Numbered from the stretch's first letter, positions 12,024 through 30,800 are shown. The stretch: 64,000 nt of DNA from Gammaproteobacteria bacterium (GCA_029883265.1 JAOUJM010000001.1:10511-74510), one strand, 5' to 3'. Notes: generated from the letters alone by a model not told the origin. Program-made: numbers and translations.

Positions 12024-12539
12024 TTAACTTCCCGGAGGTAGAATAATAATTTTGCCATCAGGCGTTATCGTAATTGATCCAGATGGAATATATGGTTGAC
12101 CAGCTTTCAAGTCTCCACCAGCTCTAGTCCCAGATCTTTGGAAAAATTGCTCTGGCGTTGTCATTGTTTCTATAGTTTTTGTACTTTTACCAGGAACAAT
12201 AGTAAGTTCTTCCATTTTTAAGAAATTTGGATTATCAGCTGCGGCTTTATTGACGTTTTTAATTATTCTTTGAGCTTGCTTTTCAGATAAGCTACCGAAA
12301 CCGACATCAATATCACTACCTTTGCCGAAATCGCCTCTTATTCGGCTACCACCAAATACTACTGTTGAATTTCTTTTTAGCCCCTGCTCTAAAATTAACG
12401 TAGCTTGCTCAGTTGTCAAATCAGGTACATGCTTTGATAAAAATGCAGACTGTTCTGCAATGCCTGATGTGGTTAATGTAGTTTGCTCAGGATATGCATT
12501 AAATACAGATTTATCTGTCCAGCGTGTGTTTGGAACTAC
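12024..12539 (-). CDS. Orphan toxin J with nucleotidyltransferase-fold motif (begins VVPNTRWTDKSVFNAYPEQ...)
   Basis: Track ORF 12024..12419 extends to the junction at 12539. VVFGGSRIRGDFGKGSDIDVGF fits the G-S…D-x-D signature of pol-beta-superfamily nucleotidyltransferases. Confidence 0.5.
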   Translation of the reverse strand, partial: VVPNTRWTDKSVFNAYPEQTTLTTSGIAEQSAFLSKHVPDLTTEQATLILEQGLKRNSTVVFGGSRIRGDFGKGSDIDVGFGSLSEKQAQRIIKNVNKAAADNPNFLKMEELTIVPGKSTKTIETMTTPEQFFQRSGTRAGGDLKAGQPYIPSGSITITPDGKIIILPPGS

Positions 12540-12985
12540 TTATCTGTATAATACCATTCTAGAAAATCGAAAAAACTTTTGTATATCGGTTGCAACATCC
12601 TCTTGGAGAGTTTTTCCTCTTCTCCCCAGCTCACATCAAATACTTCATCGCTAACTTTGCTATAAAAATAGCTCCCCTCACCTTCAATAGACGAAATACG
12701 TAAATAATCTTCCATTCCTGGCAGTGAGCTATATTCACCTGATTCAGCATCTTCAATAATTTTTTCCAAAGTGCTAATTTCGCTACCGTTACCCACTACT
12801 GGGATAGCCACCAAAGTATAAAAATCAATAAAGGCAGAGTCAGCATTTCTTATTCCCAACTCTTTCTCAAAATAATTCTTGTCATCTTGCGTAACTATAA
12901 ATTTTCCATCTTGTGCAGAAAAAACGCCGTCATAACACCACTTCAGGTTAGACTTATAGAAGTTTGAGACAATGTCCGGTAACAA
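12536..12985 (-). CDS. Putative immunity protein for toxin K
   Basis: 149-aa ORF. Its TAG stop overlaps the first junction codon of toxin J (GTAG). Confidence 0.5.
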   Translation of the reverse strand: MLPDIVSNFYKSNLKWCYDGVFSAQDGKFIVTQDDKNYFEKELGIRNADSAFIDFYTLVAIPVVGNGSEISTLEKIIEDAESGEYSSLPGMEDYLRISSIEGEGSYFYSKVSDEVFDVSWGEEEKLSKRMLQPIYKSFFDFLEWYYTDK

Positions 12986-12986
12986 T

Positions 12987-13544
12987 TTAACGACCTCCGC
13001 TATTCGTTATCTCGATTAGTCGCTGTTGCCAATAGATTTTTCTGTCAATATCAAAAGCTGATCTATCAACAGGATATGTTGGATGTTGACTTTGAGTTGG
13101 CCCAGATCCCGCGCCATTCATTTCACGCCCTCTATTGGTTTTGTATGGGTGCAATGCCTCACCTCCTTGGCCTGTTTTTGACCGATGCGTTAAATCACTT
13201 AGTTCAAACAGAGGACCGTTCGCATTTTGGCGACTAAGATGCAATTCAATGCGAGACTGTACACCATTCTTCAGAACATAAGGAGCATTTCCCACTTCCA
13301 ATAGCTCCCTATTTGTAGTTGTATAGGTCCTTTTGGTTTTTGGATTGGTAATTTTTACCACTAAATCGGGATCAATTTCTTGTTGAAAGACTTTGTATTT
13401 AATCCCTGTCCCATTTACTGGGGCTACCCACACAGCTTCGGTTTTAAAATAACTAGGATTCTTGGCGTTTTTCGCCCGTAGCGCAACAAAGTCTATCTTA
13501 TTCGGTTCTACTGCTCCCTCAAGTTCATATTTGTTTGGAACTAC
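12987..13544 (-). CDS. Orphan toxin C-terminal domain K (begins VVPNKYELEGAVEPNKIDFVALRAKNAKNPSYFKTEAVWVAPVNG...)
   Basis: Track ORF 12987..13433 extends in frame to the junction at 13544. Confidence 0.55.
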   Translation of the reverse strand, partial: VVPNKYELEGAVEPNKIDFVALRAKNAKNPSYFKTEAVWVAPVNGTGIKYKVFQQEIDPDLVVKITNPKTKRTYTTTNRELLEVGNAPYVLKNGVQSRIELHLSRQNANGPLFELSDLTHRSKTGQGGEALHPYKTNRGREMNGAGSGPTQSQHPTYPVDRSAFDIDRKIYWQQRLIEITNSGGR

Positions 13545-14254
13545 TTATTAAAAAGCGCCTTCCTCAAGACTTTCTGAGCTTCTGCCTCTTCACCTGTAGA
13601 CTCTTTAAAGCATTCATCCTGTACATCAAGTTTAAGTACGCTTCCTAAATCAGAGACACATTCCATAGCAAAATTATCTGCCCCTATATCCCTCAAAAGA
13701 TCCTTACTCATCCACATAGTAGAACCAACACATTCAATATACCCATTCTTCAGATCCCATCGCCCTGGGTTCCTAGAAATATCAATCACTTCACTTTCAA
13801 GAGGAAATGGCAAACCATTGCTCTTCTTCGGTAGATTCGAATGATCTCGTCCTTCGGACTCATAGTAAGCAATATCTTCCATGTTTTGCCAACGGTCATA
13901 TTCTCCATCATATAACCTAGCCTGAACAAAAAACGGGTCATTTACTATTTGAGTAACCCATTTTTCTGCATACTCTTTAGACGCAGCTAGATTCTTTATA
14001 TCTAACCTGGAGAAATCCAGATCTGCTATATATGAAAACTCAATACTCCCCCCATCAAGCTCAATAAAGAAGCTATCGGCCTTATTCTTAAGAAGAGTTT
14101 CCGAAACATCAGTAAAACCTAGTTCTTTGCCAGTGAATCCATCCGCCACTTTTTTATCGGCATATATTTGTTTAAATTCTTCGGTAAGCTTATTCCATAA
14201 CTTATAAGCTTCAGCGTAAGCTTTACCTCTAAGAACAATTTCAATTTGTACCAT
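13541..14254 (-). CDS. Putative immunity protein for toxin L
   Basis: 237-aa ORF. Its start lies 6 nt after the toxin L stop. Confidence 0.5.
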   Translation of the reverse strand: MVQIEIVLRGKAYAEAYKLWNKLTEEFKQIYADKKVADGFTGKELGFTDVSETLLKNKADSFFIELDGGSIEFSYIADLDFSRLDIKNLAASKEYAEKWVTQIVNDPFFVQARLYDGEYDRWQNMEDIAYYESEGRDHSNLPKKSNGLPFPLESEVIDISRNPGRWDLKNGYIECVGSTMWMSKDLLRDIGADNFAMECVSDLGSVLKLDVQDECFKESTGEEAEAQKVLRKALFNK

Positions 14255-14259
14255 GATAA

Positions 14260-14676
14260 TTATTCACCAAACTCTTTAATAATTACTGGAATATTTCGCT
14301 GCTTGCCATACTCAATTAAATGCTTCGCATCATTAAAACCACCTGGCTGAACCCTAATATCCAATATTTTCGTTGCCGGAACGTCGGAAACGGTAATGGT
14401 AGTCTTTTGCAAGTGGTCGATATGAGATCTCATATCATACTCCCAAGATTTACCACCAGTATTAACCGTTTTCAGACTAACAACATTGTTTCCTTGTTGG
14501 AAATCAATCGAAGGGAAGTTATTAGACTTAAATGGTTCGCCAGTTTTTGGGTTAATAGAGTTATCGGAACGAGCCCAATCTTTATAATCTGTTTCTGTAA
14601 GGTGTGACTCAATCTGTCTACCACGAACCTTCGGATCTAGATCCCAAACTTCTCTGCCTAACTTGTTTGGAACAAC
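14260..14676 (-). CDS. Orphan toxin C-terminal domain L (startless, 138 aa; VVPNKLGREVWDLDPKVRGRQIESHLTETDYKDW…MRSHIDHLQK…EFGE)
   Basis: Not in the ORF track because it lacks Met. Hand translation is open from GTT GTT CCA AAC AAG at 14676-14662 to TAA at 14262..14260. The TAA stop of the upstream ORF (14679..14677) is directly adjacent. Confidence 0.55.
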   Translation of the reverse strand, partial: VVPNKLGREVWDLDPKVRGRQIESHLTETDYKDWARSDNSINPKTGEPFKSNNFPSIDFQQGNNVVSLKTVNTGGKSWEYDMRSHIDHLQKTTITVSDVPATKILDIRVQPGGFNDAKHLIEYGKQRNIPVIIKEFGE

Positions 14677-15075
14677 TTATCGCACAGTTACACTCCAAGA
14701 AAAGTCTGGATATCCATCATTTTCTGTGACTCCTAAGACCAGCTTTTTGGCACCTATCACGCACCTAATTTCGCCTAACTCTTCACTTATCTCATTAGGA
14801 TGTAGCAGATCAACGAACTGCCTATAAAATGGCTCGGTATTTTTCGACTTCAAAATTAGAGTTAGCGCGTCTTTTAAACCAGGACTATTACTCTCCACAA
14901 CAGCATTTGGAGTATCAACAGACAGCATAACTGGATTCATGCTTGAAGACAGAACACGTCCTATAAACAACTCACACAAAGATAACGCGCTTTCTGACGC
15001 CTCATTCAATTTGGGCGGAAGAATTATATCGACGGTTTTTTTGTTTTCACCAGTATTCATAGCACCTTCTTCCAA
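14677..15075 (-). CDS. Second small ORF of module M (accessory or immunity protein)
   Basis: 132 aa. It overlaps the 3' end of the zinc-ribbon ORF and ends immediately before the module L junction. Confidence 0.4.
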   Translation of the reverse strand: MEEGAMNTGENKKTVDIILPPKLNEASESALSLCELFIGRVLSSSMNPVMLSVDTPNAVVESNSPGLKDALTLILKSKNTEPFYRQFVDLLHPNEISEELGEIRCVIGAKKLVLGVTENDGYPDFSWSVTVR

Positions 15076-15293
15076 CCCCCTCGAAAAGCTTGGTCAGGAA
15101 ACTCTAATACCCATAATTGTCCACAGTGTTTGCACTTGTATTGAATTTTTATAAATGGCCCTGAATGATCTATTTGTCCGTAACTTTTCAACTCGCCCAT
15201 TTCAACCATCTGGGCAATCCGCTGCCGAAATTCAACGAATTCCTTCTCAGAATTAAACCGTTCTTGGCACAACTCGCAGACTACACAACTCAT
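15057..15293 (-). CDS. Putative immunity protein for toxin M (CxxC…CxxC zinc ribbon)
   Basis: 78 aa with CVVCELC … CKHCGQ. Its start overlaps the toxin M stop. Confidence 0.45.
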   Translation of the reverse strand: MSCVVCELCQERFNSEKEFVEFRQRIAQMVEMGELKSYGQIDHSGPFIKIQYKCKHCGQLWVLEFPDQAFRGGWKKVL

Positions 15294-15793
15294 GGCTTCA
15301 ACCTAAAGATGTGGGTATCCTCTATGGGTACTGGATCAAGCAAGAATTGAGTCCATCCTCCCTGTCCAGCTTCTGGATAGGAATTTGTATAAACCTCCCA
15401 CCCTCGTGTTCCTTCATTTCCAAATGGCCTTGCGACACTAAATCCGCGGACCTTATCTACGGGGATCGCGACACCATAAGTTGGTTCTCCCCACTCAGGC
15501 TTGATTTGAGCACCGCGAGCAATAGCACCACTGGAGTGCGAAAATTCTGTTGTTGAGTAGCCACGAACACTTCCATAACGCAGAGACTTATCAAGACCGT
15601 CTTCAGATAGATATCTAAAAATAAAATCCTGACTTTCTATAGACTCGGAGAGACGGCGTTCGTAGTTCAACTGCGAAAGCTTGTCAATCCTACCTGCACG
15701 CTCTTGCGGGCTTAGGTGACCATACTTTTCTTTCAGTGCTAATGAGCTTGCTCTCGCATCCAGAACAACCTGCGGTGCATTGTCTGGAACAAA
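15290..15793 (-). CDS. Orphan toxin C-terminal domain M (begins FVPDNAPQVVLDARASSLALKEKYGHLSPQE...)
   Basis: Track ORF 15290..15670 extends in frame to TTT GTT CCA GAC at 15793. It is in frame with, and directly after, the TGA stop of immunity N. Confidence 0.55.
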   Translation of the reverse strand, partial: FVPDNAPQVVLDARASSLALKEKYGHLSPQERAGRIDKLSQLNYERRLSESIESQDFIFRYLSEDGLDKSLRYGSVRGYSTTEFSHSSGAIARGAQIKPEWGEPTYGVAIPVDKVRGFSVARPFGNEGTRGWEVYTNSYPEAGQGGWTQFLLDPVPIEDTHIFRLKP

Positions 15794-16264
15794 TCACAAC
15801 AAGCCAAATTTTTCACCCTTACCAATTACTTCAATCGTAACTGAGTAGTCGGACTTTTTTATAGAAACATGTTCTATCAAACCATCAGTTAAATTCTCTA
15901 CACAAAAATCAATTTTTTCCGATTCACTTTTTGGCAAGAAAACCTTATCAGAATACTTTGCCAAATAAGGTAACTTTTTAACTATTGGAATCCTCAATAA
16001 CGGTGTGAGTTCTCTAAATACATCCAGGAATTTGTCGCTATCCAGAGAAGGAGATAAAATTTTCAAAGCTCTTTGAAAACTTCCGATATTTTCGTTTGCC
16101 ACAAAATCATCAAAACTTTTACCGGAAACTATAGCAACCTTTCTAGTGGGTAGGCTTTTACCTTGCCAAATAGTAAGAAACGCTTTAGAAAACTCAATCG
16201 TTCTTAATTTCTCTGGCTCTTCTTTTAAAAAATCTTTTGCCAAATTAATGCTCATATGCGTCAC
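15794..16264 (-). CDS. Putative immunity protein for toxin N
   Basis: 156-aa ORF 3' of toxin N. Confidence 0.5.
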   Translation of the reverse strand: MTHMSINLAKDFLKEEPEKLRTIEFSKAFLTIWQGKSLPTRKVAIVSGKSFDDFVANENIGSFQRALKILSPSLDSDKFLDVFRELTPLLRIPIVKKLPYLAKYSDKVFLPKSESEKIDFCVENLTDGLIEHVSIKKSDYSVTIEVIGKGEKFGLL

Positions 16265-16267
16265 CTT

Positions 16268-16792
16268 CTATTTAAAACCATAGATGGTTTTTATTCTATC
16301 CCATGCATCAAACCGTGTAGCCAGACTACCATTTTCTCCTAATAAAACCCTATTTTCATATATGGTTCCTAGTTCTGGTTTTCCTATGCTGTCTGCAAAC
16401 TTTTGTTCAGCTAGGAATGCTCTCGCCTCAAGATAAGACTTATTAGACATATTTTTCACACCGGAAATATCATCGAAAAAGTGTTGCCCTTCATGTGCAG
16501 TAATTGTAGCAGCTCGTTTTAACCCAGTATTTCCGGTATAAATTAGATCTTGGTTTAACTCAATTTGATTTGTACCAGGAAAATACCGACCATTAAGCCC
16601 ATCTAATTTCGAATAAACAATCTCAACTTTTCCATTTTGAATAGCAGTTGCCAATTTAACTGATCTAGCATCCCCAGTTTCCAATATACGGCTAATCATT
16701 TGAGGAGAAGGCGCTTGATTTCCGTTCGCTAACCTAACTCCATCACCCCCAAACATTACTTTACTTTCTAACTGAAGGTTGTCTGGAACAAC
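16268..16792 (-). CDS. Orphan toxin N with HExxH zinc-metallopeptidase motif (begins VVPDNLQLESKVMFGGDGV...)
   Basis: Track ORF 16268..16756 extends to the junction at 16792. It contains TITAHEGQHFFDD (HExxH). Confidence 0.5.
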   Translation of the reverse strand, partial: VVPDNLQLESKVMFGGDGVRLANGNQAPSPQMISRILETGDARSVKLATAIQNGKVEIVYSKLDGLNGRYFPGTNQIELNQDLIYTGNTGLKRAATITAHEGQHFFDDISGVKNMSNKSYLEARAFLAEQKFADSIGKPELGTIYENRVLLGENGSLATRFDAWDRIKTIYGFK

Positions 16793-16814
16793 CTAATCCC
16801 AAACATCAGTCAAG

Positions 16815-17096
16815 CTAACAAACAGACTCTAGATCCTTGATTAAAACCATAACCTGATCCTGATTACATTCAACAAAGAAACTGTCGATAGTAGAAGTTG
16901 TTTGCAAAGTAATAGATTGCTTAGCTTTAAGCTTTTCTGCTAGTTCTTTTGTTACATCTTCACGATTAGAATTAGTTATATGTACCGAACACACATCCTT
17001 ACCATAAACAACCATAGCTTCGTAGGAATCTTTTAAAGACCACCATTCTCGACGATCTAAAACTCCAGCTGCCTGTTCTCTTATTAAATTAGCCAT
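16815..17096 (-). CDS. Putative immunity protein for toxin O
   Basis: 93-aa ORF. Its start overlaps the toxin O stop (17096). Confidence 0.5.
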   Translation of the reverse strand: MANLIREQAAGVLDRREWWSLKDSYEAMVVYGKDVCSVHITNSNREDVTKELAEKLKAKQSITLQTTSTIDSFFVECNQDQVMVLIKDLESVC

Positions 17097-17563
17097 CAGT
17101 CTACCCTAATATTATCTGTAGAGTTGAATATGCTGCGCTGCCCAGCACTATTCAAGATCAAACTTTGACTTTGTTGCTGCCTAAATATATCCAATACCAT
17201 ACGATCCCCGGGCCAGCCTGATGCATCTAGTTTAATGTCTGTCGTTCCGGGATGAGTATGACCAGACCACTTATAGCCTTTATCAGCCAAACCTTGTAAT
17301 TCAGATTTGGTTAATGGAACACCTCCAGCATTCCCTCTAAACACTAGGCGTTGACTACCATTAGTAAACAAAGCAAACTCATCACCTGTCTTTGCCGTAA
17401 GCGCTGCCAGATCAGTCACGCTTATTTGCTTCTTATGAAGAGTTGTACTTGATAATGTATCTGGTAATTGACCCAAAACCCGTTGTTGACGCTTTGACAA
17501 ATCGCCAAAGCCCCAAGCTATTTCGCTAGGAGAACTAGCTGAAATCGTCTTGTTTGGAACTAC
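17096..17563 (-). CDS. Orphan toxin C-terminal domain O (begins VVPNKTISASSPSEIAWGFGDLSKRQQRVLGQLPDT...)
   Basis: Track ORF 17096..17500 extends in frame to the junction at 17563. The TAG stop of immunity P overlaps the junction (GTAG). Confidence 0.55.
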   Translation of the reverse strand, partial: VVPNKTISASSPSEIAWGFGDLSKRQQRVLGQLPDTLSSTTLHKKQISVTDLAALTAKTGDEFALFTNGSQRLVFRGNAGGVPLTKSELQGLADKGYKWSGHTHPGTTDIKLDASGWPGDRMVLDIFRQQQSQSLILNSAGQRSIFNSTDNIRVD

Positions 17564-17853
17564 ATACTAAATCCGCTTTTCCAATCACTTTTAGTAGTAG
17601 GATCCGACCTCATTTCTTCTAAGAAGAACTCACACGCTGAGCTTTCATCCTCAAAACACTCTTTGCCAGTCTGCAATCCTCTCTCACTATAATAAACACA
17701 CCACCGGCCATTTTCACAACGCAAGCACAACGCCTCGTCCTTTTGTTCCTCCTCCAATGAGTAAGAGCTAGGATTAAATTTCTCCTCACTCAACTTTCTT
17801 TGAAGATCATCTTTATTCATGCAATATCCCTCATCATTTTGTAACGCGCTCAA
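17560..17853 (-). CDS. Putative immunity protein for toxin P
   Basis: 97-aa Cys-rich ORF that overlaps the toxin P 3' end. Confidence 0.45.
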   Translation of the reverse strand: MSALQNDEGYCMNKDDLQRKLSEEKFNPSSYSLEEEQKDEALCLRCENGRWCVYYSERGLQTGKECFEDESSACEFFLEEMRSDPTTKSDWKSGFSM

Positions 17854-18732
17854 GATATTGGTTTGCTGGATTCAAGAGCTCCTTTACTGATTTTGGCAAC
17901 TCGTATTGGGTACCATATCCAGGCATATCAAAAGCAGGTGCAGCTGGGCCAATGCGTGTATCCGGAATTTCTTGGAGAACGCGATACACATTCAAGTTAC
18001 TCACATCTGTGCCGGGACGAAGGGATAATGTTTCTGGAGTTGTTCCTAAGGGGCTTGCGAATGTACCGCGTTCATTCCCGAGACGGCCTATTAGCTGTCC
18101 AGGTTGCAATGAGCCAATCTCATCAGCACCATAAACAAAACCTTTATTCTTCGGCCAATCCCAGAACACATTTTCTGCACCATACTTGCTGGTCAAATAT
18201 TCATTCCATTGAGCGCCTGAAACTGCTCCAGTCTTGTTTGGAACACGATCACCGCCTTTATATTTTAATATACCGCCAGCAATAAAACCATATGTTAAAC
18301 CACCCAATAGCTCTGGATTCTCCCTGTTCTGCCACAAGTTCCTCAGACTTTGGACCTTTCTATCTGAAAATTCGGTACTAGTAGGAAAACCCAGCTTATC
18401 TAACTTAAAGAAACTATTAAAATTTAAAGAGAGGTCATTAAACTCTTCCCAGATATTTTTTCCTATATCTAGCAAAACCTCTAAAGTCTCATTTGTCAAT
18501 CTGTCACCAAGATCTTTATGAGCATTTAGGGTTCCTTTACTGAATCTCAATGCGTAATCACCCACATCTCCGTTTTGTTTCTGCTGGTTACTCCGGCCCA
18601 AAACAACCCCATTAATCTGATCAAGTTGCTGCATTGCCTCTTCTAAATTTTGTTGACTCTCAGAAACCTCTCCAACCCCCTCCTCCTTACTATGTCCCGC
18701 CAACGTCAATGGTAAATCCACTTCCTGGCCAT
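17834..18732 (-). CDS. Module P: displaced original C-terminus of the giant rhs gene (EVDLPLTLAGHSKEEG…KYKGGDR-VPNKT-GAVSGAQWNEY…LERVTK)
   Basis: Track ORF 17834..18817. The first 28 codons are IS66-encoded (18817-18733). Immediately outside the IS left end the frame continues from the TSD (HGQ) into rhs-like sequence. That sequence joins seamlessly to …TYNGYGQ of the giant ORF once the IS66 element and one TSD copy are removed. Confidence 0.65.
18725..18732 (+). repeat. 8-bp target-site duplication CTGGCCAT (left copy) of IS66 element 2
   Basis: Identical octamer at 22840-22847, directly outside the other end. IS66-family elements make 8-bp TSDs. Confidence 0.85.
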
Positions 18733-18755
18733 GTAAGCGTCCTAAACTCCGCACC
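18733..18755 (+). repeat. IS66 left terminal inverted repeat (copy 2)
   Basis: GTAAGCGTCCTAAACTCCGCACC. The canonical IS66-family end starts GTAAGCG. Confidence 0.75.
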
Positions 18756-18816
18756 TTCCCAGTCAGTTTAAGATCCGTTAGCCTGCTGCTGTGTAAATTA
18801 CCAACAGGAGCAGGCA

Positions 18817-19173
18817 ATGAACGATCTCACTCAACCGTCCATCAAAAACATTCGCACGGATAAACGCAGCAAAGGCCCTGAGTATTGGCAGGCGCATATG
18901 GATGCGTTAAAGCAAAGTGGTATGACTAAAACCGGTTATTGCATGCATCACGGACTTTCTACGGCGACGTTTTTTAAGTGGGAGAAGAAACTGGCCAAGG
19001 CCTCGGCTTTGTTTGTTCCGGCTAAGTTGGAGACAGTGCCGGTGTATCCAGCCTCATCCAATGATCTGATTCGCATTGATCTGCCCAATGGTTGTGTGAT
19101 TTCCTTGCCAGTGTCGTGTTCACCTACTGAGGGTTTACGTTGGATCGAGACCTTGATGCGTGCTTCATGCTGA
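18817..19173 (+). CDS. tnpA: IS66-family TnpA (orf1)
   Basis: 118 aa. Paralogue of 6931..7290. Confidence 0.7.
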   Translation: MNDLTQPSIKNIRTDKRSKGPEYWQAHMDALKQSGMTKTGYCMHHGLSTATFFKWEKKLAKASALFVPAKLETVPVYPASSNDLIRIDLPNGCVISLPVSCSPTEGLRWIETLMRASC

Positions 19174-19523
19174 AGCTAGATCGTGAGATTCAGATTTACT
19201 TTGCGATTAATCCGATCAATATGTTAAAAAGCTTTGATGGGTTATCCGCTTTAGTGGTGGATGTGATCGAACAAAACCCCCTATCGGGGCATTTGTTTGT
19301 GTTTCGTAATCGAGCCACTGATAAGATTAAATTGCTGATCTGGGATCGCAATGGTTTTACCATTTATTACAAAAGACTCGAACGTGGTCGCTTTAAGTTT
19401 CCTGAGCTAGATGACTGCACCCACTTGTCTATCACCCGCCAAGAGTTGGATTTGTTATTTGACGGGATTGATTTTACTAAGCTCAAACGATTACCCGCAC
19501 TGCATTACACATCCGTGACTTGA
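19140..19523 (+). CDS. tnpB: IS66-family TnpB (orf2); true start probably the internal MLKLDREIQIY at ~19167
   Basis: Same motifs as 7278..7634. Confidence 0.8.
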   Translation: MDRDLDACFMLKLDREIQIYFAINPINMLKSFDGLSALVVDVIEQNPLSGHLFVFRNRATDKIKLLIWDRNGFTIYYKRLERGRFKFPELDDCTHLSITRQELDLLFDGIDFTKLKRLPALHYTSVT

Positions 19524-19553
19524 TTCTGGATTAACCTGCATTACAATAGCGCC

Positions 19554-21044
19554 ATGCAGGCAAAGTCTCAAACACGCTATTCTTATTCTGAACTCGAAGC
19601 ACTTGTGGTTGAACTTCAAAAAGAAGTGAACCTGCTTCGAGAGAAAAACCGGTTGTTGTTGCATCGACAGTTTGCTGCTAAATCCGAACAGATGACGGAC
19701 GATCAGTTGTCTTTATTTAATGATGATTCGGTAACAGCAGAATCAACTCCTACAAAAATGAAGAACGATAACATCGTCGTACTCGCCTATCATCGCAAAA
19801 AACGGCAACGACTGACGTTTTCTGATGACCTACCTAAACGTAGAGTTGAGATTGATCTGGATGAACACGACAAGACCTGTGATTGTTGCAATACTCAACT
19901 CACGCAAATCGGTGAAGACATTACTCGAAAGATTGAATTTATCCCAGCGAAAGTCCAAGTCGTCGAATACGCTCGATTAAAATATGCGTGTAAATCCTGT
20001 GAAGACACCATTAAACGCCCACCCTTACCGAACTTTATCTTACCAAAAAGTTTCGCCACACCAAGTTTACTCGCGCATTTGATTGTGAGTAAGTTTGGTG
20101 ATGGCTTACCGTTGTATCGCATTCAACAACAACTAGCGCGACAAGGCGTGCATTTACCGCGTTCGACTATGAGCACCTTATTACTCAAAGCAGCTGATTT
20201 GCTCGTACCAATTTATAAATTAATGATCAAGCAAGTATTGTCCGGCCCGCGTATTTGGACGGATGACACGATTCTACCCAAACAAAATGATGATCCAAAT
20301 CGAAAGAAGATTATTCAATCTCGATTATGGGTATATATCGGAGGTCCACTCAAAGATCCACCCTTGGTGATTTTCGATTACACCAGCAATCGATCTTCGA
20401 AATGGCCGAAGGACTTATTAGCCCATTACCAAGGTTATAAGCATGCTGACGGGTATGGTGGATATAAATCGTTGCATGTAACCGGTAGCATTCACTATGT
20501 GGCTTGCTGGAGTCACGCACGGCGAAAGTTTTTTGAGGCTTCACAACTGACCGAACAAAGCGGTAAAGCCAAGACCATGATCAAATACATCAAACAGCTT
20601 TATCGGATTGAAACGGCTTGTGAGAAGTATGGCAACAAAAAACGTAAACGGTTTCGACGAAGATATGCCACACCCATACTCAACACCATTAAAGCCTATG
20701 CCGAGCAACATGCGCCGCTTATTCCACCCAAAACCAGTTTGGGTAAAGCGTTTACCTATTTACTCAATCAATGGCATGGCTTAGTTCGTTATCTCGATGC
20801 CGGTCACCTAACCATCGACAATAACCTGGCAGAACAACACATCCGACCCATCGCCGTTGGAAGAAAAAGTTTTTTGTTTGTCGGCTCCGATCGCGGCGGT
20901 CGTGCGGCTGCGATTTATTATTCGCTGTTGGCGTCGTGTAACAGTTTGGGGGTGAATCCTTATGCGTATTTGGTGGCGGTGTTTGAGCGTTTGCCGGAGT
21001 GTCTAAGTGACCAGGATTTTCAGAAGCTGATGCTTAAACAATAA
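19554..21044 (+). CDS. tnpC: IS66-family transposase TnpC (orf3)
   Basis: 496 aa. Coiled-coil N-terminus, zinc-finger region and DDE core. About 88% identical to copy 1 but diverges at the extreme C-terminus. Confidence 0.85.
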   Translation: MQAKSQTRYSYSELEALVVELQKEVNLLREKNRLLLHRQFAAKSEQMTDDQLSLFNDDSVTAESTPTKMKNDNIVVLAYHRKKRQRLTFSDDLPKRRVEIDLDEHDKTCDCCNTQLTQIGEDITRKIEFIPAKVQVVEYARLKYACKSCEDTIKRPPLPNFILPKSFATPSLLAHLIVSKFGDGLPLYRIQQQLARQGVHLPRSTMSTLLLKAADLLVPIYKLMIKQVLSGPRIWTDDTILPKQNDDPNRKKIIQSRLWVYIGGPLKDPPLVIFDYTSNRSSKWPKDLLAHYQGYKHADGYGGYKSLHVTGSIHYVACWSHARRKFFEASQLTEQSGKAKTMIKYIKQLYRIETACEKYGNKKRKRFRRRYATPILNTIKAYAEQHAPLIPPKTSLGKAFTYLLNQWHGLVRYLDAGHLTIDNNLAEQHIRPIAVGRKSFLFVGSDRGGRAAAIYYSLLASCNSLGVNPYAYLVAVFERLPECLSDQDFQKLMLKQ

Positions 21045-21094
21045 GTGAAAATGTAAACCATTATTGTTCACCTATTACCACACGGCCAAACATC

Positions 21095-21823
21095 TCATTT
21101 ACGAGGTTCAGGTATCTCCACACCTCGCTGCTTTAACGCGGCTAAGAGTTTTTCATACCAAATCTGTTGACTGTCGGGAACATTTACCATTACAGCAATT
21201 TGTGCCAATCTCTCTAATTCTACAGTAGTGCCCTTTTCTAAATAAAAAAGCCCTTTATCATAACGTCCCCAGACGGCAACAACGTGATCGGCTATAGTTC
21301 CGCCTTGGTTGTCAACACCATTTAAATCGGCACCATTATCCAGTAAAAAATCAATGCGTTTCCAATTGCGTCCATTAGCTATGCGTTGTAATAATGGCAT
21401 ACCATTCCAGCAAGTGATGTTGGGGTCACCGCCATGGCGTAACAATATTTTTAGATAGTCGATGTCGTCGGCTTGTGCAGCAAGTTCCATAGCTGAAAAT
21501 TCAATATCGGTTTTGTAATTCGGATTCGCACCTAGCTGTAATAGTTTTTCCAAACCTTTTTTGGCTTTCGCAGCAATCAGCCACATTAAGGGTGAGAGGC
21601 CTTCGGATCCGACCGCATTCACATTGGCACCTGCTTTTACTAATCGATCGACTTCGGCAAAATCCTCGTCAATGGCGGCATAGATCAATTGTGAATCCAA
21701 CGGCTTTGAAAACGATTGTTTCGCGGTTAAGCCACCCAGTTTTAATTCACCACAGGCGCTACACATGAAACTCATGCCGAATAAAAGAAATAAGTATTTT
21801 CGGAGTTTTATATTTTGAATCAT
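21095..21823 (-). CDS. Ankyrin-repeat lipoprotein, the cognate immunity protein for the lipase-like toxin domain (IS66 cargo)
   Basis: 242 aa with a signal/lipobox-like N-terminus (LFGMSFMCSACG). It has at least four ankyrin repeats (GANVNAVGSEGLSPLMWL…, GANPNYK…, GGDPNIT…, GADLNGV…). An RBS AAGGTGA precedes the ATG. It lies immediately 3' of the toxin domain. Confidence 0.7.
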   Translation of the reverse strand: MIQNIKLRKYLFLLFGMSFMCSACGELKLGGLTAKQSFSKPLDSQLIYAAIDEDFAEVDRLVKAGANVNAVGSEGLSPLMWLIAAKAKKGLEKLLQLGANPNYKTDIEFSAMELAAQADDIDYLKILLRHGGDPNITCWNGMPLLQRIANGRNWKRIDFLLDNGADLNGVDNQGGTIADHVVAVWGRYDKGLFYLEKGTTVELERLAQIAVMVNVPDSQQIWYEKLLAALKQRGVEIPEPRK

Positions 21824-21846
21824 GCTTCACCTTAATTGCAGATCAA

Positions 21847-24800
21847 TTATTTAAACGCGTTGATAAAATATTGCATATCGTGCAAATCCACAGGGTCCAA
21901 ATAACTTTGCCATGGCAAGGGCTGTTTCGCTTCATTTACGGCCGGTACGGCAATACGAGTGCCTGCGGCTTCTGGCATTTGTCCGGGGCCAAAACGATGC
22001 CAGCCAATGTCCCTACCATAAGATACATCATTAAGTGCCATAACAGCCGCGAGTAAATTTTTTGGGACTGTACCCCATTGGTTGAGGACGGAGTCCACCA
22101 CTGGACTAGCCTGGAGTGTGCTCAATATTTCACCCGGCGTATAGAATGCGTAAACATTTTTCTTTAAGTGATTCCGATCCATTCCATAGCGCTCAATTGT
22201 ACCATCACTGAGTCCTGCCGCGTTAAAGGTAACCGCACTGGATTTCAACCTGCCAGCTTGTGCCGAAGCAATGCCGCCACCGAGGGAGTGACCGGTAAAG
22301 GTTAGTGGTGATGAGCCTAACGCTATTTGAAGATCAATTGCAAGATTGATCCCAAATTCATATTGGGTCGAATTGAAATCGGATCCTTGAGCAATACTTG
22401 CTACTGCATCTTTAACCGCTTCATGCCGGCCCAATTTCGTATCCGTTCCTCGATTGGCGAATATAAATTCGCTTGTGCGATAATTAAAATAGAGTGCGCC
22501 TTGGTAGCCACTCTTCTTATCTACAAAATTTTCAGGTTTCATATCCAGGACATCAATAAAATCCCTACCCATGCGGTAAATATCCTCAGTGACTTTCTTT
22601 GGTTCCTTTCCGGTGTATTCTTGATAAACATCGTCAGATACCATAGCGTTTTCATACCAATCAAGGCTTCCACTAAAGTCCAGTCTGATTGGAGCGGCAC
22701 TAGCAAGCTGCGAGTTATATAGCGTTCCGTTTTCATCAACTAGCTGTCCGTTCTTGAATGTGAGTATCGGTTTGGTTTCAACGGCATCGGATGATTGTCT
22801 ATAAGGAATTTTGCCTGGGGCAGAGTTTTGGACGCTTACCTGGCCATACCCATTATACGTTTTACCGCCATTACGAATAAGATTGCGACCTGGCTGGATT
22901 CCCCCAAATAGCGGCAACTCACCCAAAGCAGATTTCCAAGCATCCTCACCAGACACGCCTTTGCGAATAGACTTGGTGTAGTGTTTCTTAATCGCCTGTC
23001 TTTGTCGGTGGTCGTTTATTTTCAACTCATCAAGTTTGTTATCAAACTTTTTGGTCGACTGCTCAGCACTAATATATCCCGACGCAGCACTACTTAGTGC
23101 CTCAACAGCAACCGTCCGCCAGTCCGGCCGGTAGTCTTTCAGAGTCATGGAGTTAACGGCTATGCGGCCAACTCCAGTTAACGCACCACGTATCGCATCG
23201 CCTGCAACACCCGCGAAACCCCATCCATCAACTTTCCCAACGTTGCTTGGTAATGAAGATGTGACTCCACCCACTAATGCGCCAACCGCTACATTCGCGA
23301 ACAGATTTCCTGCTTGGCTATTGTATTTTTTACGCTGCTCAGTTGACTCCATGGCCATCGATAAGCCAGTCGATATAAGTGCTCGTCCCGCACCTTGTAG
23401 TGCACCCTTAACAACCCCTCCTCCTGTCTGATTCAATCCAGGTATTTGTGATATGATCGCGGCGATTGTCATTGATTTAACAATTTCTTCCTCGTCAATT
23501 TCATCGATGTAACCAACATTCTTCATGTATTTCTGTATGGCATACGAGGTCATTCCGGCAGCAATAATCGCCCCTTGCGGACCAAACACTATAAAAGCAG
23601 CAATAGATATGACAACAGAAGCAACATTCATCCAAAATATTTCAGACTTCGAGGGTTGATTCCTTGCAGGCATGCTTGGGTCCGTACTTCCAATTATCTC
23701 TCCCGGACTATAAGGTTTGAAGGTATCGGCATTGTTATGAATGTTTGTGACAACATTCGGAATGATTATGGATATTCCAGGTGTTAAATCAATATTGGTG
23801 ATATTGTTTGCGTTTGCAATCACATACCAAAGACTAGCATCTCCCCATACTTTACCTGCAATCGTTTCCAAAGTGTCACCTTGCACAACGAGGTATTCAC
23901 TGGCTGTATTCGCAGGATAGTTAGCACTAATGGCTTGATAATTTTGATCAAAGTCTGCTGAAATAACTCGATTCTTCCCTCTTTTTTCGTTATCTGCAAT
24001 CTCCTTGTTTGATAGTCGCGACTGGGCAAGTATTTGTGTATAGTCGGTTTCACCGGCACCTCGGTTGGATACTTCACCAATACCCCGTCCATTAAGATAG
24101 AAATAGCGGTTTACATCGTAATTTGTATTATCGATTTCATTACGCATAATGATTCGGCCGTCGGCATCAACCGTAAACTCAACTCGGCGCTCATATTTGG
24201 TGCCATGTAGTGGTGAGTTGGAATCATCCATTCTCATCAAGTGTCCATTTTGGTCATAATAAAGGTGAGAATACCCGTCAACAAAACCACGTGAATTTAC
24301 ATCCGACCTACCAACACTCTTTTTTGCAGAATCCCAATAGCTATAGAAATAGGAATTCCTGAAATTCTTTTGTTCCTCAATGCTCTTTACTTGATATGAG
24401 ACATTCTTTTCAGCTAGATCTAAACGATCTATTTCACGATAGGTGTAATCGTTATGAATTGTTGACTGCTCTTGCAAATATAGAAATTGATCCTCAGAAT
24501 TTTCCACTCTTTTACGATACTCAATACGAGAGATACGACTATCCAGATCATAGCTATAGTCGTATTGTTGTACAGACTGGGGTGGAATTGTGGTAACAAC
24601 AGTTTCTATATCTGGGTCATATAAATGAGAGGAGCTCGTTCGACCTAGCGCATCTAGCAAGCGCCGAGACACTAAATTTTTGTCTTCAACATTATCGACT
24701 ATTTTTCCGTGTTCAACAGTTTCTAAAATACCATTTTTTGTATATCCATATCGTTCGATCATAGTCGTATTCGCGCGAATATAGTTAACGCCAATTCGCT

Positions 24801-27800
24801 CACCTGCAAGATTATACAGGACTTCATATCCTTTATTTTCTGCAATTTCGACATTGCCAGACCCACCGACATCGAGTCTACCTTGTGTAATTCTAAATCG
24901 GTTCATTGAGTCGTAGTCATACCAATGTTCCTGGACGAAATCTCCAGTCGCTTCTCTATAGTCTGCTCCTCGATGAGCGTTAAGATCAATACCACCGTGG
25001 TACTTGGATACCACATGAATGCGATTTCCCATTTCGTCGTAATCATATGTAATATTGAAAAACGGATCGTTAATCTCGACAACACGATTGTAGTCATCAT
25101 ATATCGCTATCGTATATTGATAATCTTTTCCAATATCGGCATTTGCTCCCTCTTCGTAAACCGCTTCATAGGTTTTGTTACCATTGTTGTCGTAGCCATA
25201 CCGACTAACCAATCTAACACCATCATTTCCACCGTTAAAACCATAATCTACTTTTGCCTTTAATGACCCGTTATCATTGTAGTCAAACTCAATCACTTGA
25301 TCATAATCAGAATGATTAGTCATAAAATTGTTCAGACTATAGCGATATAAATCCATGTAGTCATAAGTAAAACCATGTAGCTGTGTATCAATATTATTCC
25401 ATGCGGCATCAGTTGCAATAATTGAAGCACCCGGATCCGTATTACCGATTTGATAGCGCAACTGCCCCCTTGCATCATAAAAATAGCGATAGCTACGGTT
25501 TCCGAGATCACGGTGGTAAACGAGCTTATTGAAATAGTCATATTGGTCTGTGATGGCTCGTGTTTCATAGTGCGGAATAATAATTTGAAGTCCAGCTTTC
25601 AAATCCGCATCAGTAATGTTATTTGCTTGACCTATCGAATTTGACATGTCTTCAACATTTAGTAAGCTATAGGCTATGGACGCCAAGGTATCGCCAGTTT
25701 GGACAATATAATTTAATTTTTCCCGACGTCCATAAAGGTAGACGGTTAATGTGTTTCCGACCACCAGTGTTTCGTCAACGACACCATTATCACTTCCAAT
25801 CCGGTTCGCTACCTCAGAGACTCTCAACAACTGTCTTGCAATAGATTCTAGCGTGTCACCGGACCTGACAATATACAAATTGCCAGAATAGGTTGTTTTG
25901 CTGAACCCCCCTTCCTGACCATTAAAGGTGAGATAGTTATAATCGTAACGAGTAACTTTATCACCATAGCTGACATGTTTTACCACCCGTCCTAATGCAT
26001 CGAAATAAGTCCGCTCTCGTCCACCGCCTTGGTCATGGAGAATTTCGTCATGGGAATTTGTATCCGGGTCAGTTAGATCGAGTGATGTATCAACTAAATT
26101 GATATGTGCAATTCGGTTACCATTTTCATCATATTCGTACTTTTCAACATTGTCGTATATATTGCTAGTTTCTTCAGTAATACCACCAAAAGAGCCTAAT
26201 ACATATTTTATAACATTATGTTTTTCTTTAGTAACATAGGTAATTTGGTTATTGTGATCAAACTGATATTTTGTCACGCGATCTGAGTCAGCTGTTAGCT
26301 TCTGACGTTTTTCAATTACATTACCAAAGCCGTCATAGACATAGGTCATTCCGCCCCCATCAGGGTTGAACTCCTGCTTGAGGCCATTTTGGTCATAAGA
26401 GAATCTTTTTAAATTGTTGCGTGCATCTGTAATTCCAGTGACATTACCCAGCTTGTCATAGTAATAAATCGCATTGGCATCCTGAATAGTTTGAAGCCGA
26501 CTGTAATAACTATTTCGAATTGGATCTTTTCGCGGATTACTTTTTCTAATTAGATTACCCATCTTGTCATATTCAAAGTAGGTATAGATATCTTTGCCAT
26601 CTTTTTCTTGGACAATTTCTCCAAAAGCGTTGTAGTAGTGAGATTTGTGAATTTGTACAAACTGGTCTGGATCGCTGTTATCACTAGAATTCACGCGACG
26701 ATGTGAGTAAAGTGACGCCTCACCTGTTAAATCGATGGACAATTGTCCCTGCAATACTTTGGCATTGGGATCATTTGGTTTATAGGTATAATTAATAACA
26801 TAGTCACCGGAATAGCTTCTTGGAACTGAATATCTTTGTCTCGTGCTGTCCGTTATAGTACGGAAAATTATTTCTTTGTATGTTTCACCGCCAGATTGTC
26901 TAATTGTTGCTGACAGTGTTCCTTGTGCTGGATCAACGTTTTCAAGATATACATCCCTGATATAATACCAAGATAAGCTAGAATCCATAAATGGAAATGA
27001 AGTAACGCGAGCCTCAATCGAATTATCACCATCATCCGAGCTAAAAGCGTTGCCATCTAAGCGCAAATGACTGCCTGGTTCTACTGATGGGTTATTAGAT
27101 AAATTCAGAATTACTTTCCCTGTATGAGGCGTTAAATCTGGGTTTGTTGCTTCATTGTCATAATGATATTCATATTTCAACTCAAACTGTCCTTCGAGTC
27201 CAGCATCGCCAAAATTCCAGGTTTGCCAGGAAGGATTAAAACCACTCGGTGTATCAAAATGTTCAACAGTAACCCACTCAGTTTCACCCACCCGTCTAAT
27301 CTCTACCGTTAGGGTGCCCAGAGACTTTGGTACATTCTTTAATATAATATCTCGACCATAGTACTGGTCGACAGCAACGTAATTATTCTGGCCGTCCACG
27401 TCACGAAAGCTTCCTGATACCGACGCAATGGTATAGCCATTCTTCTTGATTGTGGCACTATATGTCCTGGAACCAATATCATGTCCTTTCGGCGTACGAT
27501 AATGCGCGTCCTTACCGCCACTCCCATATGTGATAATTTTTTCTTCTTCATTATTCGGATTAAACTCTAGCACCAGACTACCTTCACCGTAGGAATTCTT
27601 GATTGAATCCACATTCGGATCTACGGCATCCCACCAAGTCTCCGCCCAGTCTTTACCTACAGCGTCATGAACACGTAGATGTAAACCACCATAGGGGGTA
27701 ACTTCAATATCAACTTTTCTATCACTTAATGTCTGGTATAGAGTTTGTGAAATCGACTGAGTGTGCGATGGTTCGTAAATATGAACAAGTTCGTTTCTTT

Positions 27801-30800
27801 CATTGTAAACGCTTGAACGATAAACAGAAGGAGCATTGTTATCAGTGATTGATGGCAGGATCTCTTTTGTCGCATTTCCGTTACGATCATAAGCATATTC
27901 CTTGACCACACCATCGCTGTTAGTTTTAATCAGGTTGCCGTTGCTGTCATATTCAAAAAACACTTGCCTGGCTTTGTTAGCTTCTGGACGTGATAGTTGA
28001 AGTGTATTTCTTTCGTATGCGCCCTGAAACGCTGCTTTTTCATAGCCATTGTATTCAGTGTATTTGTTCTCAAAGTAAGCATAGACAGAAGAATTTTTCT
28101 CTGTCCTTTTTCCACTGACTATGTTCCTATTTAGTCTATCATAAATGTATTCCGCGATATCTGTAAAAAGGTTTCCATCTGCATCATGTCTATTTAGGCT
28201 TTGGGTTCTAACATTACCAACAGCGTCGTAAGTATACTTGTTATTGGCACCATATTCTTCACTAACATTGGCATTGAAGTTTGCATCCCAATCCTCCAAC
28301 AACCTCCCATCAACTCCGTATGAGAATTTTTGTATTTGATCAAGGTTCGCAAGAGAGGGAGCACCATTAAGAGGAATATTTCTAGACTCACTGTCTTTCT
28401 CAGATGCAATATTTCGCGCCTCGATCACATTCCCATGTGCATCATATATATTTTTTGTAGATTTAAGACCTGATTTTTTTGTTAAGAGGCGACCTAAAAC
28501 ATCGAAACTATAATTTGTAGTATTTGACTCCGCGTCTACTATAGTGGTTATATTTCCCATTACGTCATAGACATATGCAGTAACACTATCTTCAAGCACT
28601 CCAGATTGCATGTTACCGTTACTAAAAGAGTATGTTTGAAAATTTTCCAAAGAATCCGTTTTCAGCCTATTTAATTTGTCGAATGAATAATTTTTAATTC
28701 TCGAATCAGAATATTGATTATCTCTTAAATCAACACTTTCTATCACAAAATTGTAACCACCATTCGTTGCAACGTTCACATTAGACAAATTAATCGAACC
28801 GCTTTTTATTACTCGATCGTTATCTTGCAGAATATATGATACCGTTGCTCTTCCACTAATGTTACCGACATCAAAAAATGCTTCGCCATTTTCATTCACC
28901 ATAACATCTACTGGTGTAGCAGTCGTTTCACCTTCTCGCAGCAGGCTCGCGCTCCAGACTCCACCAACATAATCAACGTCACTAATCTTCAAACGATTGA
29001 CATCAAATGCTGAGTATCCGGAATGCCAGCCTTGTGATCCAAGCATAAGATTCGTATCCACTCTTGCAATTTCAAAAGAGTCTGAATTGCTTATAAGTGT
29101 GATAACAAACTCTTTGATTTCACCAGTATTATATGAACGAAGAGGTATTGTCCCTTTGGTAAGGATTGTCGTAGTAGGAAAAGTTGTGTGATAAGTGCCA
29201 TCCGCTCTCGCAGCTCGAATAACGTAATAGTCGCCTTGTTTTAAGGTGGGAAGATTTATTTTTACGTACATCACAGAAGGCATCCCATCGCCTACCTGCC
29301 AAAAGTAAGGATAAAAGTAACCTTCCTCCAAATTGACTTGAACGATTCGATCCTCGTAACCGTTTGTTTCAAACTTCTCAAGCACTTCTAATAAAGAAGT
29401 ATTTTCATCCACCACATCTCTTAAACGTATCGAAGCCTTCTCTTCTCTAATCGCATTATTGAATGCATCGTAATTCCACTGGGTTGCATATCTTAGTGCA
29501 TCAACTGTGACTCTTTTATTACCTTTTTTATCATAATAATGAAAAATAGAATTTTCGTTTCCATCTACTTCTCTTACTAAGCGGCCTTTATGGTCATAGT
29601 ATTTCCGAATCACCGTTTCGCTGACATAATTTTCTTCCTTAATAAATTGATCATCACCAGGATCACCAATGGGCACCATTCTATCTTTTTCATAACGATG
29701 CTCTGCCGGAAGTTTTGTCTCCACAATTTGATTAAATGCATCATAACGATGTGTTAGTTGCATGTAGACATTTGAGACTGTAAATTTGTAAATCGAGTCT
29801 GCGAAGGTTGCAGTATCACGATATTTTCGCTCTTCAATAATATTACTCACAGAATCATAGGCAAACGTTTTCAAGAACCCTTCCGCATCGTGGGTGGCTA
29901 TCCGTCGTCCTAAATTATCATAATAATGCTGAGTTATGTTTAGATTTGCATCAATTTCACGGACCAAATTGCCAACAACATTGTATTTTTGTTCGATTGT
30001 GGTCGTTATACCCACGCTATCACCGGCACTCAATTTTATTCTATGGTTTTCCGTTTTAACCAGTAAGTTTAATTTGTTATAGGTATAGCTTCGACTTCGC
30101 TCTTCCTCCATGCCCGCTGCTTCTCGTGAAATGCGCCGGTTTCCGAATGCATCGTAACTGAACTCATTTGTTTGTCTTTCAAAACCTGTAGTTTCAAAAT
30201 CGATAAAAGGCAGCAAGAATCGCCCATCCATGCCTACCTCAATGGATTCACGATCGCTGATTCCACCTTTGTTAGCAATCGGCAAATACTCACTCGTCAA
30301 ATTTCCTTTGCGATCATAATTGTAGTGGTATTGATAACCAAGCGAGCGTTGGTAGTCTGGGTCTAGAACATTTGTTATAGGTTGATGACCTAGTAATTTT
30401 CCAATCTGATTTCCAAACGCATCATAATCATATTTTTCTTTTACCGATTCTGCATTGGTTAATTCAGTTTTGCGGTTCAGTTGATCGTAGTTCAGTAAGG
30501 TCTTTTGATCTTTATCAGTATTAATCTCCAAAAAGGTTTCGAGAATCTGACTTTCCGTGGTGTTGTCATCAACAGTATGAGCGGCCGCAATTGCGGTTGC
30601 ATATTGCATCGTACCCGTTAGATTACCCATTCCATCATAGGCTTTGGTTGTCACATAACGCTCAGGATCAACCACCAAAGTATTGCGATCAAGCTTATCG
30701 TAGTAAAAATAACTTATTGTGTCATAGGGTTCAGTAATTTTAGTAATATTACCAAACGCATCATAATCGGTTTTCTTCAATTCAAAAATATTGACGGTGC

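Follow-up and report, generated by a model that had tools for sequence, protein, structure and literature searches.

A cargo-bearing IS66-family transposon fused in frame to a giant YD-repeat toxin gene: a probable exchange of the toxin tip by transposition

A stretch of 64,000 nucleotides from a gammaproteobacterium (GCA_029883265.1, JAOUJM010000001.1:10511-74510), hereafter the window, contains a 19-kb gene encoding a YD-repeat/LysM polymorphic toxin, an element of the IS66 family of insertion sequences (IS) near the 3' end of this gene (element E1), and an array of start-less toxin/immunity cassettes downstream. E1 contains transposition genes (tnpA, tnpB and tnpC), a lipase-like toxin module and an ankyrin-repeat gene, and the frame of the host gene continues through the right inverted repeat (IRR) of the element into the lipase module. 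The arrangement probably arose when transposition of this cargo-bearing element swapped the toxin tip by in-frame fusion through the translated inverted repeat, whereby the old tip became an orphan; a probability of roughly 0.8 is given to this reading. The coordinates of the features are collected in Table 1.

Table 1. Features of the toxin locus, with positions counted from the first base of the window (ORF, open reading frame; IRL, left inverted repeat)
Feature	Position	Strand	Basis or remark
Element E1, cargo-bearing IS66-family transposon, 4,107 bp	18733..22839	+	terminal inverted repeats, target-site duplication, Pfam matches of tnpB/tnpC
IRL of E1, GTAAGCGTCCTAAACTCCGCACC	18733..18755	+	
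IRR of E1, GTAAGCGTCCAAAACTCTGCCCC	22817..22839	-	minus-strand translation VSVQNSAP, in host-gene frame
Left copy of target-site duplication, CTGGCCAT	18725..18732		
Right copy of target-site duplication, CTGGCCAT	22840..22847		minus strand ends with codon CAG (Q6054)
tnpA-position ORF, 118 aa	18817..19173	+	assigned by place upstream of tnpB, as in IS66; no Pfam match
tnpB (IS66 Orf2-like)	19140..19523	+	PF05717, E=2.8e-33
tnpC, IS66 DDE transposase, 496 aa	19554..21044	+	PF03050, E=5e-85; zf-IS66, LZ and C-terminal domains
Ankyrin-repeat cargo gene, 242 aa, hydrophobic N-terminus, Tli-like putative immunity	21095..21823	-	Ank Pfam and PDB ankyrin matches
Cargo toxin module, 330 codons, GHSLGG lipase motif, no 5' start codon of its own	21847..22839	-	7ubz_B match
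Host-encoded part of giant YD-repeat/LysM toxin gene, residues 1-6054	22840..41001	-	RHS_repeat, YD_repeat and LysM matches
Displaced original C-terminus (160-aa linker, VPNK, TNT NADase), 296 aa + stop	17834..18724	-	
Junction core GTTCCAAACAA (VPNK) of ancestral tail	18234..18244	-	
97-aa ORF overlapping the TNT stop codon, putative TNT immunity	17560..17853	-	mainly position; Imm59 E=6e-4, below curated cutoff
Orphan toxin/immunity cassette array	1095..17560	-	each start at GTTCCARACAA
Cassette starts	17560, 16789, 15790, 14673, 13541, 11593, 6460, 5658, 4796, 2603, 1696, 1105	-	
Element E2, second cargo-bearing IS66 element, 3,654 bp	6847..10500	+	tnpABC at 6931-9185; inverted-repeat matches; no target-site duplication
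E2 cargo toxin-like ORF, 251 codons	9745..10500	-	open through IRR in the E1 frame: VVP, then VSVQNSAPRKNN…
E2 cargo 184-aa ORF, hydrophobic N-terminus, putative immunity	9194..9748	-	overlaps stop of toxin-like ORF
E2 left flank, displaced tail: at least 129 linker codons, VPDNK, toxin domain	6041..6846	-	

Element E1 and the end of the giant toxin gene

The terminal inverted repeats of E1 are imperfect, agreeing at 20 of 23 positions, and both begin with a GTAAGCG-type sequence. The 8-bp sequence CTGGCCAT forms a perfect direct repeat directly against both ends of the element. Eight flanking bases would agree by chance in approximately 1 in 65,536 cases, and an 8-bp target duplication is the habit of the IS66 family. 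The gene trio is also that of the family, as tnpB and tnpC encode IS66-specific domains and a small ORF lies ahead of them. A simple IS of this kind is about 2.4-2.7 kb long, contains transposition genes only and has its right end just after tnpC. E1 contains instead approximately 1.8 kb of toxin/immunity cargo (21045-22839) between tnpC and IRR, pointing inward from IRR, and the term IS66-derived transposon with passenger genes suits it better. When the whole window was scanned with the terminal motif, it was detected at both ends of E1, at both of a second element (E2) and, weakly, at 41969, with no right-end-like sequence just after tnpC of E1. The weak site (41969-41985, minus strand; GTAACCGTGCAAAACTC) has two mismatches to IRR and lies inside a small ORF approximately 970 bp upstream of the start of the giant gene. 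It would encode VTVQNSPP, compared with VSVQNSAP of IRR, and is either a relic end or a chance match.

The present giant ORF (21847..41001, minus strand; 19,155 bp, 6,384 aa) continues past the edge of the element. The host codon for Q6054 ends at position 22840, the element starts at 22839 with GTA, and 330 more codons are open. The fused reading through IRR is VSVQNSAPGKIPYRQ…GHSLGG…FK followed by a stop, with the last 330 residues encoded by the element, and the peptide across the junction between Q6054 and V is …YNGYGQVSVQNSAPGK…. An earlier note on this DNA had described an IS66 insertion. The insertion stands; the description was incomplete, since approximately 1.8 kb of cargo is fused in frame and the giant gene is not truncated. 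Judged by the sequence, a lipase tip took the place of the TNT tip, and the giant gene was not truncated.

The lipase shows similarity to 7ubz_B in the PDB, a "T6SS lipase effector" (T6SS, type VI secretion system), with E=5e-11 over residues 144-259 (approximately 115 residues around the catalytic core). Its homologues in the databases carry PF26363, and some are annotated as RHS-associated, PAAR or VgrG proteins. The peptide encoded by IRR was found in none of approximately 95 lipase homologues. The first in-frame ATG of the module lies approximately 70 codons in. The ankyrin gene is located 23 bases downstream of the lipase module, and its product has the hydrophobic N-terminus MIQNIKLRKYLFLLFGMSFMCSAC, as read from the sequence. 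The lipase of PDB entry 7UBZ from Enterobacter cloacae has been placed in a group named Tle6, the members of which are invariably paired with ankyrin-repeat immunity proteins (PMC11470151). The E1 cargo encodes an alpha/beta-hydrolase with a GxSxG motif (GHSLGG) and an adjacent ankyrin protein with predicted export, as in the Tle6-Tli pair of E. cloacae. The lipase match, the adjoining ankyrin gene and the Tle6 pairing rule therefore identify the cargo as a recognisable effector/immunity pair. It differs from the E. cloacae pair in that the lipase is a start-less module in a transposon, fused to a YD-repeat protein, and not a free-standing T6SS effector.

The giant protein contains RHS/YD repeats to approximately residue 5650 (PF05593, E=2.7e-68 and 9e-46; TIGR01643) with LysM domains interspersed, followed by a glycine-rich hydrophobic stretch and then by the linker. 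The model NF041261 scores 118 bits against a cutoff of 2000, and only two DPxG[LI] matches were detected, both in the middle of the protein. Variable C-terminal toxins, immunity genes and orphans are all present, namely the TNT domain with its 97-aa ORF, the lipase with its ankyrin gene and at least 12 orphan cassettes. The name rhs is acceptable for this gene only in the broad YD-repeat sense.

The whole of E1 with both flanks was also found on a single 4,361-bp contig of an independent ENA assembly (L012) at 99.98% identity, and the right junction is present on a JGI contig from another sample (L014). As the insertion occurs in independent assemblies, it is not an assembly artefact.

Restored ancestral tail and the orphan cassettes

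In-silico removal of 18733-22847 yields a single open frame of 6,350 codons. The joint lies on a codon boundary and reads …GGKTYNGYGQ followed by EVDLPLTLAGHSKEEG… (EVDLPLTLAGHS…), and the DNA of an empty site would read …TATGGCCAG followed by GAAGTGGAT… across it. The earlier note had claimed that this excision joins the reading frame, and its coordinates proved exact, with no frame shift or stop at the joint. The restored product is a 6,350-aa YD-repeat/LysM protein with a tip composed of the linker, VPNK and a TNT NADase. In the restored tail of 296 aa, VPNK begins at tail residue 161 and is followed by a domain of 132 aa. The arrangement of tail, VPNK and C-terminal domain is thus the one that the note had proposed, with the linker shortened from its figure of approximately 165 aa to 160 aa. 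The last 136 aa (VPNK plus 132) match the tuberculosis necrotizing toxin (TNT) domain in Pfam (PF14021) with E=1.9e-20, and the domain is similar to NADases in the PDB (E=1e-7; AfNADase E=1.2e-7). That the displaced C-terminal module is now stranded downstream is supported by the perfect duplication, the codon-boundary joint and the order of a TNT toxin followed by a small immunity-like ORF.

A BLAST-type check of the tail, a word-indexed search with the reconstructed 560 aa, detected only TNT domains outside this organism. In the TNT homologues of other organisms, similarity starts exactly after VPNK (…TGAQWNE…). The linker was searched separately by full HMMER: the 428 residues that precede the toxin were compared with 1.84 billion representatives. 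Apart from the protein itself, the only match was a weak relative, P0222 (E=2.7e-4; 1e-11 in pairwise BLASTP). It comes from a sample of the same kind and consists of 2,163 aa, with RHS repeats, LysM and, at the C-terminus, a YwqJ deaminase. The alignment with P0222 spans query residues 40-291 and contains no gap at the joint (264/265). Homology of the segment before the junction to an rhs relative was accordingly found, weakly and in P0222 only. The gapless alignment modestly supports natural contiguity across the joint. The P0222 locus (L015:2-13272) consists of two giant RHS ORFs of 2,204 and 2,163 aa, with the YwqJ deaminase at the end, beyond which lie small ORFs and a transposase of the IS3 type (rve); the locus contains no GTTCCARACAA motifs.

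No paralogue of the 160-aa linker was found elsewhere in the window. The peptide VDLPLTLAGHS at the start of the displaced TNT tail (18690-18724, minus strand) resembles VDFALTLAGSS (6480-6520, minus strand), which sits 14 residues before VPDNK of the tail at 6460. The two linkers are otherwise unrelated and the DNA of the two peptides is not conserved; the resemblance was judged too weak to count as linker homology.

The motif GTTCCARACAA has 13 matches in the window, all on the minus strand and between 1095 and 18244, compared with 0.08 expected. The core is common to the ancestral tail and the 12 downstream cassette starts, and its codons GTT CCA AAC/GAC are invariant at synonymous positions. 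E2 has severed a 14th copy after GTTCCA. The cassettes have unrelated sequences farther than 1-3 nt upstream of the core. Eleven of the 12 orphans have an in-frame stop 1-3 codons before the VP residues; at 11593 the match starts one codon before the core. The exception is the cassette at 6460, which is open over 160 codons upstream, as is the ancestral tail, and retains at least 129 linker codons. One cassette encodes an LHH nuclease as its toxin domain. The cassettes at 1696 and 1105 (902-1696, minus strand) are near-duplicates (VPNKTLNHQASSGVIL… and VPDKTLNHQASSGVIL…, respectively), and the latter has an ORF of only 67 codons and so looks like a decaying duplicate.

The earlier note had gone further and identified VPNK as the native recombination junction of all orphans. 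The invariant core and the start of TNT homology immediately after VPNK indicate that VPNK marks a genuine boundary between modules and, at the DNA level, a site, so this part of the claim holds; the claimed recombination at VPNK is conjectural. A core of 11-14 nt is too short for ordinary homologous recombination, P0222 lacks VPNK, and the only documented rearrangement, the E1 insertion, lies 160 codons upstream of it. No recombinase was detected among the ORFs scanned in 1-18.7 kb, a scan that covered part of the ORFs there. In Rhs and CdiA systems, orphan toxin-immunity modules exchange with the main gene by homologous recombination. The present locus resembles them in having a repeat-rich delivery protein, a variable toxin tip with an immunity gene and start-less modules downstream. 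It differs in that 11 of the 12 orphans are trimmed to the 11-14-nt core, essentially without an upstream homology arm, which is a misfit with the usual homology-arm model and points to a short-site mechanism. The pattern of the core, as it appears in the sequence, is what would be left by repeated insertion at a short site, not by homology-arm displacement. Integron attC-type sites have GTTRRRY and RYYYAAC cores. An integron-like array was considered and rejected, as GTTCCAAACAA is unlike GTTRRRY, nothing is conserved beyond 1-3 nt upstream of the core and no integrase match was found among the scanned ORFs.

Related elements inside and outside the window

Two further elements have the same layout as E1. 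One of them, E2, lies within the orphan array. Over the first 2,263 bp, which comprise IRL, tnpA, tnpB and most of tnpC, E1 and E2 share 86.8% identity, and their right ends are identical over the first 23 nt and similar over approximately 32 bp; the cargo sequences in between are unrelated. The toxin-like ORF of E2 matches phrog_3108 (function not assigned) with E=1e-27 and has no match in Pfam. A single-sequence AlphaFold2 model of this cargo was unusable (predicted local distance difference test score, pLDDT, 35). The motif E-S…GLFQM allows the guess that the product may be lytic-transglycosylase-like. The first ATG of the ORF is codon 18, and no Shine-Dalgarno-like sequence is present at a usable distance. 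IRR of E2 adjoins the start of an orphan whose VPNK core is broken off after GTAGTTCCA, and IRL of E2 adjoins the middle of a different tail composed of a linker and VPDNK. The missing target duplication suggests that one IS-mediated adjacent deletion may have occurred. The tail at 6460 is cut by E2 as the TNT tail is cut by E1, which suggests an earlier event of the same kind.

A metagenome scan with the 20-mer of IRR identified four loci (L001-L004). The third element (L001) is contiguous in an ENA contig (L006), with 68% identity in the backbone, 66% in TnpC and full identity over the first 22 nt of the right end. Its cargo includes a 290-aa ORF in the VSVQNSA frame with a DHIFP…N…N HNH-like motif, a weak match to GmrSD_C (E=0.012) and no match in the PDB. 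This ORF abuts a 239-aa ORF with a weak SUKH match, and the element also contains an S26 signal peptidase gene and two small ORFs. L002 starts with 99 bp identical to the cargo-plus-IRR end of E1, joined to the same CRISPR flank as the third element; an end of the E1 type is thus present in another genomic setting as well. L003 and L004 fall within an ABC-permease gene, have no neighbouring IS and were treated as chance matches, as was a match in a viral contig (L013) inside a 607-aa ORF with no IS66 similarity to the window.

The CRISPR setting was seen at L001:11681-11873, L002:100-1350 and L006:5517-6710; the array has the 28-nt repeat TTTCTAAACCGCGTACTCAGCGGATAAC and adjoins the csy genes. 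L002, with its E1-type end, and L006, with its HNH-type end, have the same CRISPR junction and differ only in 1-2 IS-proximal spacers. A shared junction with different cargos could reflect in-place cargo replacement, repeated insertion at the same site or an effect of the assembly graph. None of the spacers next to these three loci matches the window or the elements.

More distant relatives of TnpC were found at 47-49% identity (L008, L009 and L010) and at 61% (L007 and L011). L009 (47%) is an ordinary IS66 of approximately 2.5 kb in which tnpC is directly followed by the right end, and the layout with cargo is therefore characteristic of a small sub-lineage. No matching right end was detected in L008. 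In L007 and L011, tnpC is followed by genes of the same orientation, and a search of the contigs detected no recognisable right end. No relative of TnpC was found in the scan of viral contigs. In the genome collection, the 21-nt IRR had no matches and TnpC patterns gave no confirmed relative; the best TnpC identity in the plasmid collection was 41%. An exact look-up of the TnpC of the window found it not on record.

In L009:495-6480 and in L010, an ordinary IS66 (TnpC 47% identical) is located immediately downstream of another toxin-like locus, with genes for a protein of 1,350 aa and for one of 290 aa that matches TEN_YD-shell, and with small ORFs, one of them RraB-like. IS66 elements may repeatedly be associated with YD-type toxin loci in this way. 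Upstream of the giant gene in the window (44815-46089, minus strand), a gene encodes a DUF6973 protein that has a weak wnt-like match, and a 411-aa DUF6973 protein is encoded just downstream of tnpC in L007:2234-3469 and L011:4086-5321. Further upstream of the toxin locus, a flagellar cluster (47101-63964, minus strand) contains genes for FlgE/F/G-like rod or hook proteins, a FliI-type ATPase, FliF, FlgI and FlgA. The upstream neighbours of the giant gene are TPR, DUF6973 and flagellar genes, and no T6SS genes (PAAR, VgrG) are present in the 64-kb window. Likewise, no genes of a T6SS, a type V secretion system (T5SS) or a Tc toxin that might explain export of the giant protein are visible there.

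Toxin-tip exchange and competing explanations

In the proposed event, an IS66-family element with tnpABC, a start-less Tle6-type lipase module and an ankyrin immunity gene would have transposed into the 3' linker region of the giant gene, duplicating 8 bp of the target. The open frame of the cargo extends to the very last base of IRR, and insertion on a codon boundary, in matching frame and orientation, would have given the host protein its present 330-aa lipase end in place of the original 296-aa end. The old tip and the small immunity-like gene would have been pushed 4.1 kb downstream, where they now would head the array of at least 12 start-less orphans. The evidence is strong for the structure and indirect for the function. 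On this reading the fusion protein would be made, exported and toxic, the displaced TNT module is presumably silent, and selection may have kept the frame of IRR open, so that toxin tips can be swapped by such elements. The broader proposal that this IS66 sub-lineage is a dedicated vehicle for toxin tips, with IRR as a translated linker and an exchangeable start-less toxin and immunity gene behind it, is tentative and somewhat doubtful.

Several observations weigh against an exchange of the tip. Among the three or four elements, E1 alone is a simple live in-frame fusion. The cargo of E2, an element without a target-site duplication, is joined after a stop codon and five codons (LFVVP) of a start-less orphan. 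The third element stands in a non-toxin context, where a type I-F CRISPR array has its first repeat at a distance of 23 nt; the cargo of this element has a stop codon 35 codons past IRR that is kept in both assemblies. The E1-type end of L002 is fused to no ORF, with only 5 open codons upstream. Searches of the protein collections turned up no empty-site allele. The giant protein has no canonical Rhs core end, with no match to TIGR03696 and neither the PxxxxDPxGL self-cleavage motif, which divides shell from toxin, nor a PxxxxDP motif. Because the element entered 160 codons upstream of the usual module boundary, the fusion protein may lack function. The right frame and orientation are expected by chance in 1 in 6 insertions and in approximately 1 in 36 pairs, a figure that is suggestive and not decisive. 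The chance of 1 in 6, the unproductive copies and the distance to the module boundary are also what would be expected if the structure is as described and the read-through accidental and inert, so that the insertion inactivated the TNT-tipped toxin and the lipase and ankyrin genes are passengers or decaying. This explanation is unlikely, as three different cargo ORFs share one frame relative to IRR, the first ATGs of the E1 and E2 cargo ORFs come late, and the 19-kb ORF is still intact over 6,384 codons and in three assemblies. The toxin class of the cargo is, moreover, one normally delivered as a C-terminal fusion. A promoter and terminator scan of 17.5-23.2 kb detected no enrichment and decides nothing on the function of the fusion either way.

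Two other explanations concern the structure itself. If the lipase and ankyrin genes were the native end of the rhs gene, the IS66 would extend only over approximately 18733-21060, and the IRR-like site at 22839 and the 8-bp repeat would be coincidental. The giant ORF is indeed continuous through 22839 and the base composition is unchanged at the boundary. This explanation is nevertheless very improbable, because the right end of 23 nt is the same as that of E2, the perfect duplication abuts both ends, no right-end-like sequence follows tnpC, and excision gives back a 296-codon open frame with a toxin end. The order of tnpC, cargo and IRR also recurs with other cargos in E2 and in the third element outside a toxin locus, and the identical 99-bp cargo-plus-IRR end is found at the CRISPR flank in L002. 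The junctions of E1 might alternatively be chimeric assembly artefacts at repeated IS copies, as the window comes from a contig (82 kb) of the metagenome-assembled genome of an uncultured gammaproteobacterium and related contigs often break at such copies (L005, L014). Both junctions are, however, present on one contig of L012 and the right one again on L014, and neither a perfect target-site duplication nor restoration of the frame is expected from a chimera; this explanation can be practically dismissed. The exchange of the toxin tip by transposition of E1 remains the probable explanation of the locus.

The components of this system are all known already, namely IS66 elements, IS with passenger genes (called transporter IS in the usage of ISfinder), Rhs/CdiA orphan arrays and Tle6-Tli pairs. 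E1 is a typical IS66 element in its tnpA/tnpB/tnpC trio, its GTAAGCG… inverted repeats and its 8-bp target duplication, and differs from the family in that the cargo-bearing elements described here are 3.7-5.6 kb long, compared with approximately 2.5 kb, and have an inverted repeat translated into the cargo ORF. The documented change of tip occurred by transposition, not by recombination as in Rhs/CdiA systems, and the giant protein has LysM and a glycine-rich hydrophobic segment in place of the canonical core end. A full-text literature search returned no description of an IS terminal repeat read in frame into a start-less toxin module. A mobile element of Burkholderia thailandensis that encodes a contact-dependent growth inhibition (CDI) system is described as a new transposon class (PMC6350997). 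It resembles E1 in carrying polymorphic-toxin genes on a transposable element, and differs in that it reportedly moves the whole CDI system, whereas E1 moves only a toxin tip and an immunity gene, which are proposed to be expressed only via in-frame fusion.

Provided that the fusion works, toxin tips could be passed among unrelated delivery proteins and genomes with no need for sequence homology. Polymorphic toxins are thought to gain tips by recombination with silent orphan cassettes or incoming DNA, and transposition would then be a route to their diversification distinct from orphan-cassette recombination. An element landing in frame would re-arm any large secreted toxin gene in one step, with the matching immunity gene included. 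Such a mechanism would help to explain the clustering of transposases around toxin loci, and it would represent a simple natural design for re-arming a delivery protein.

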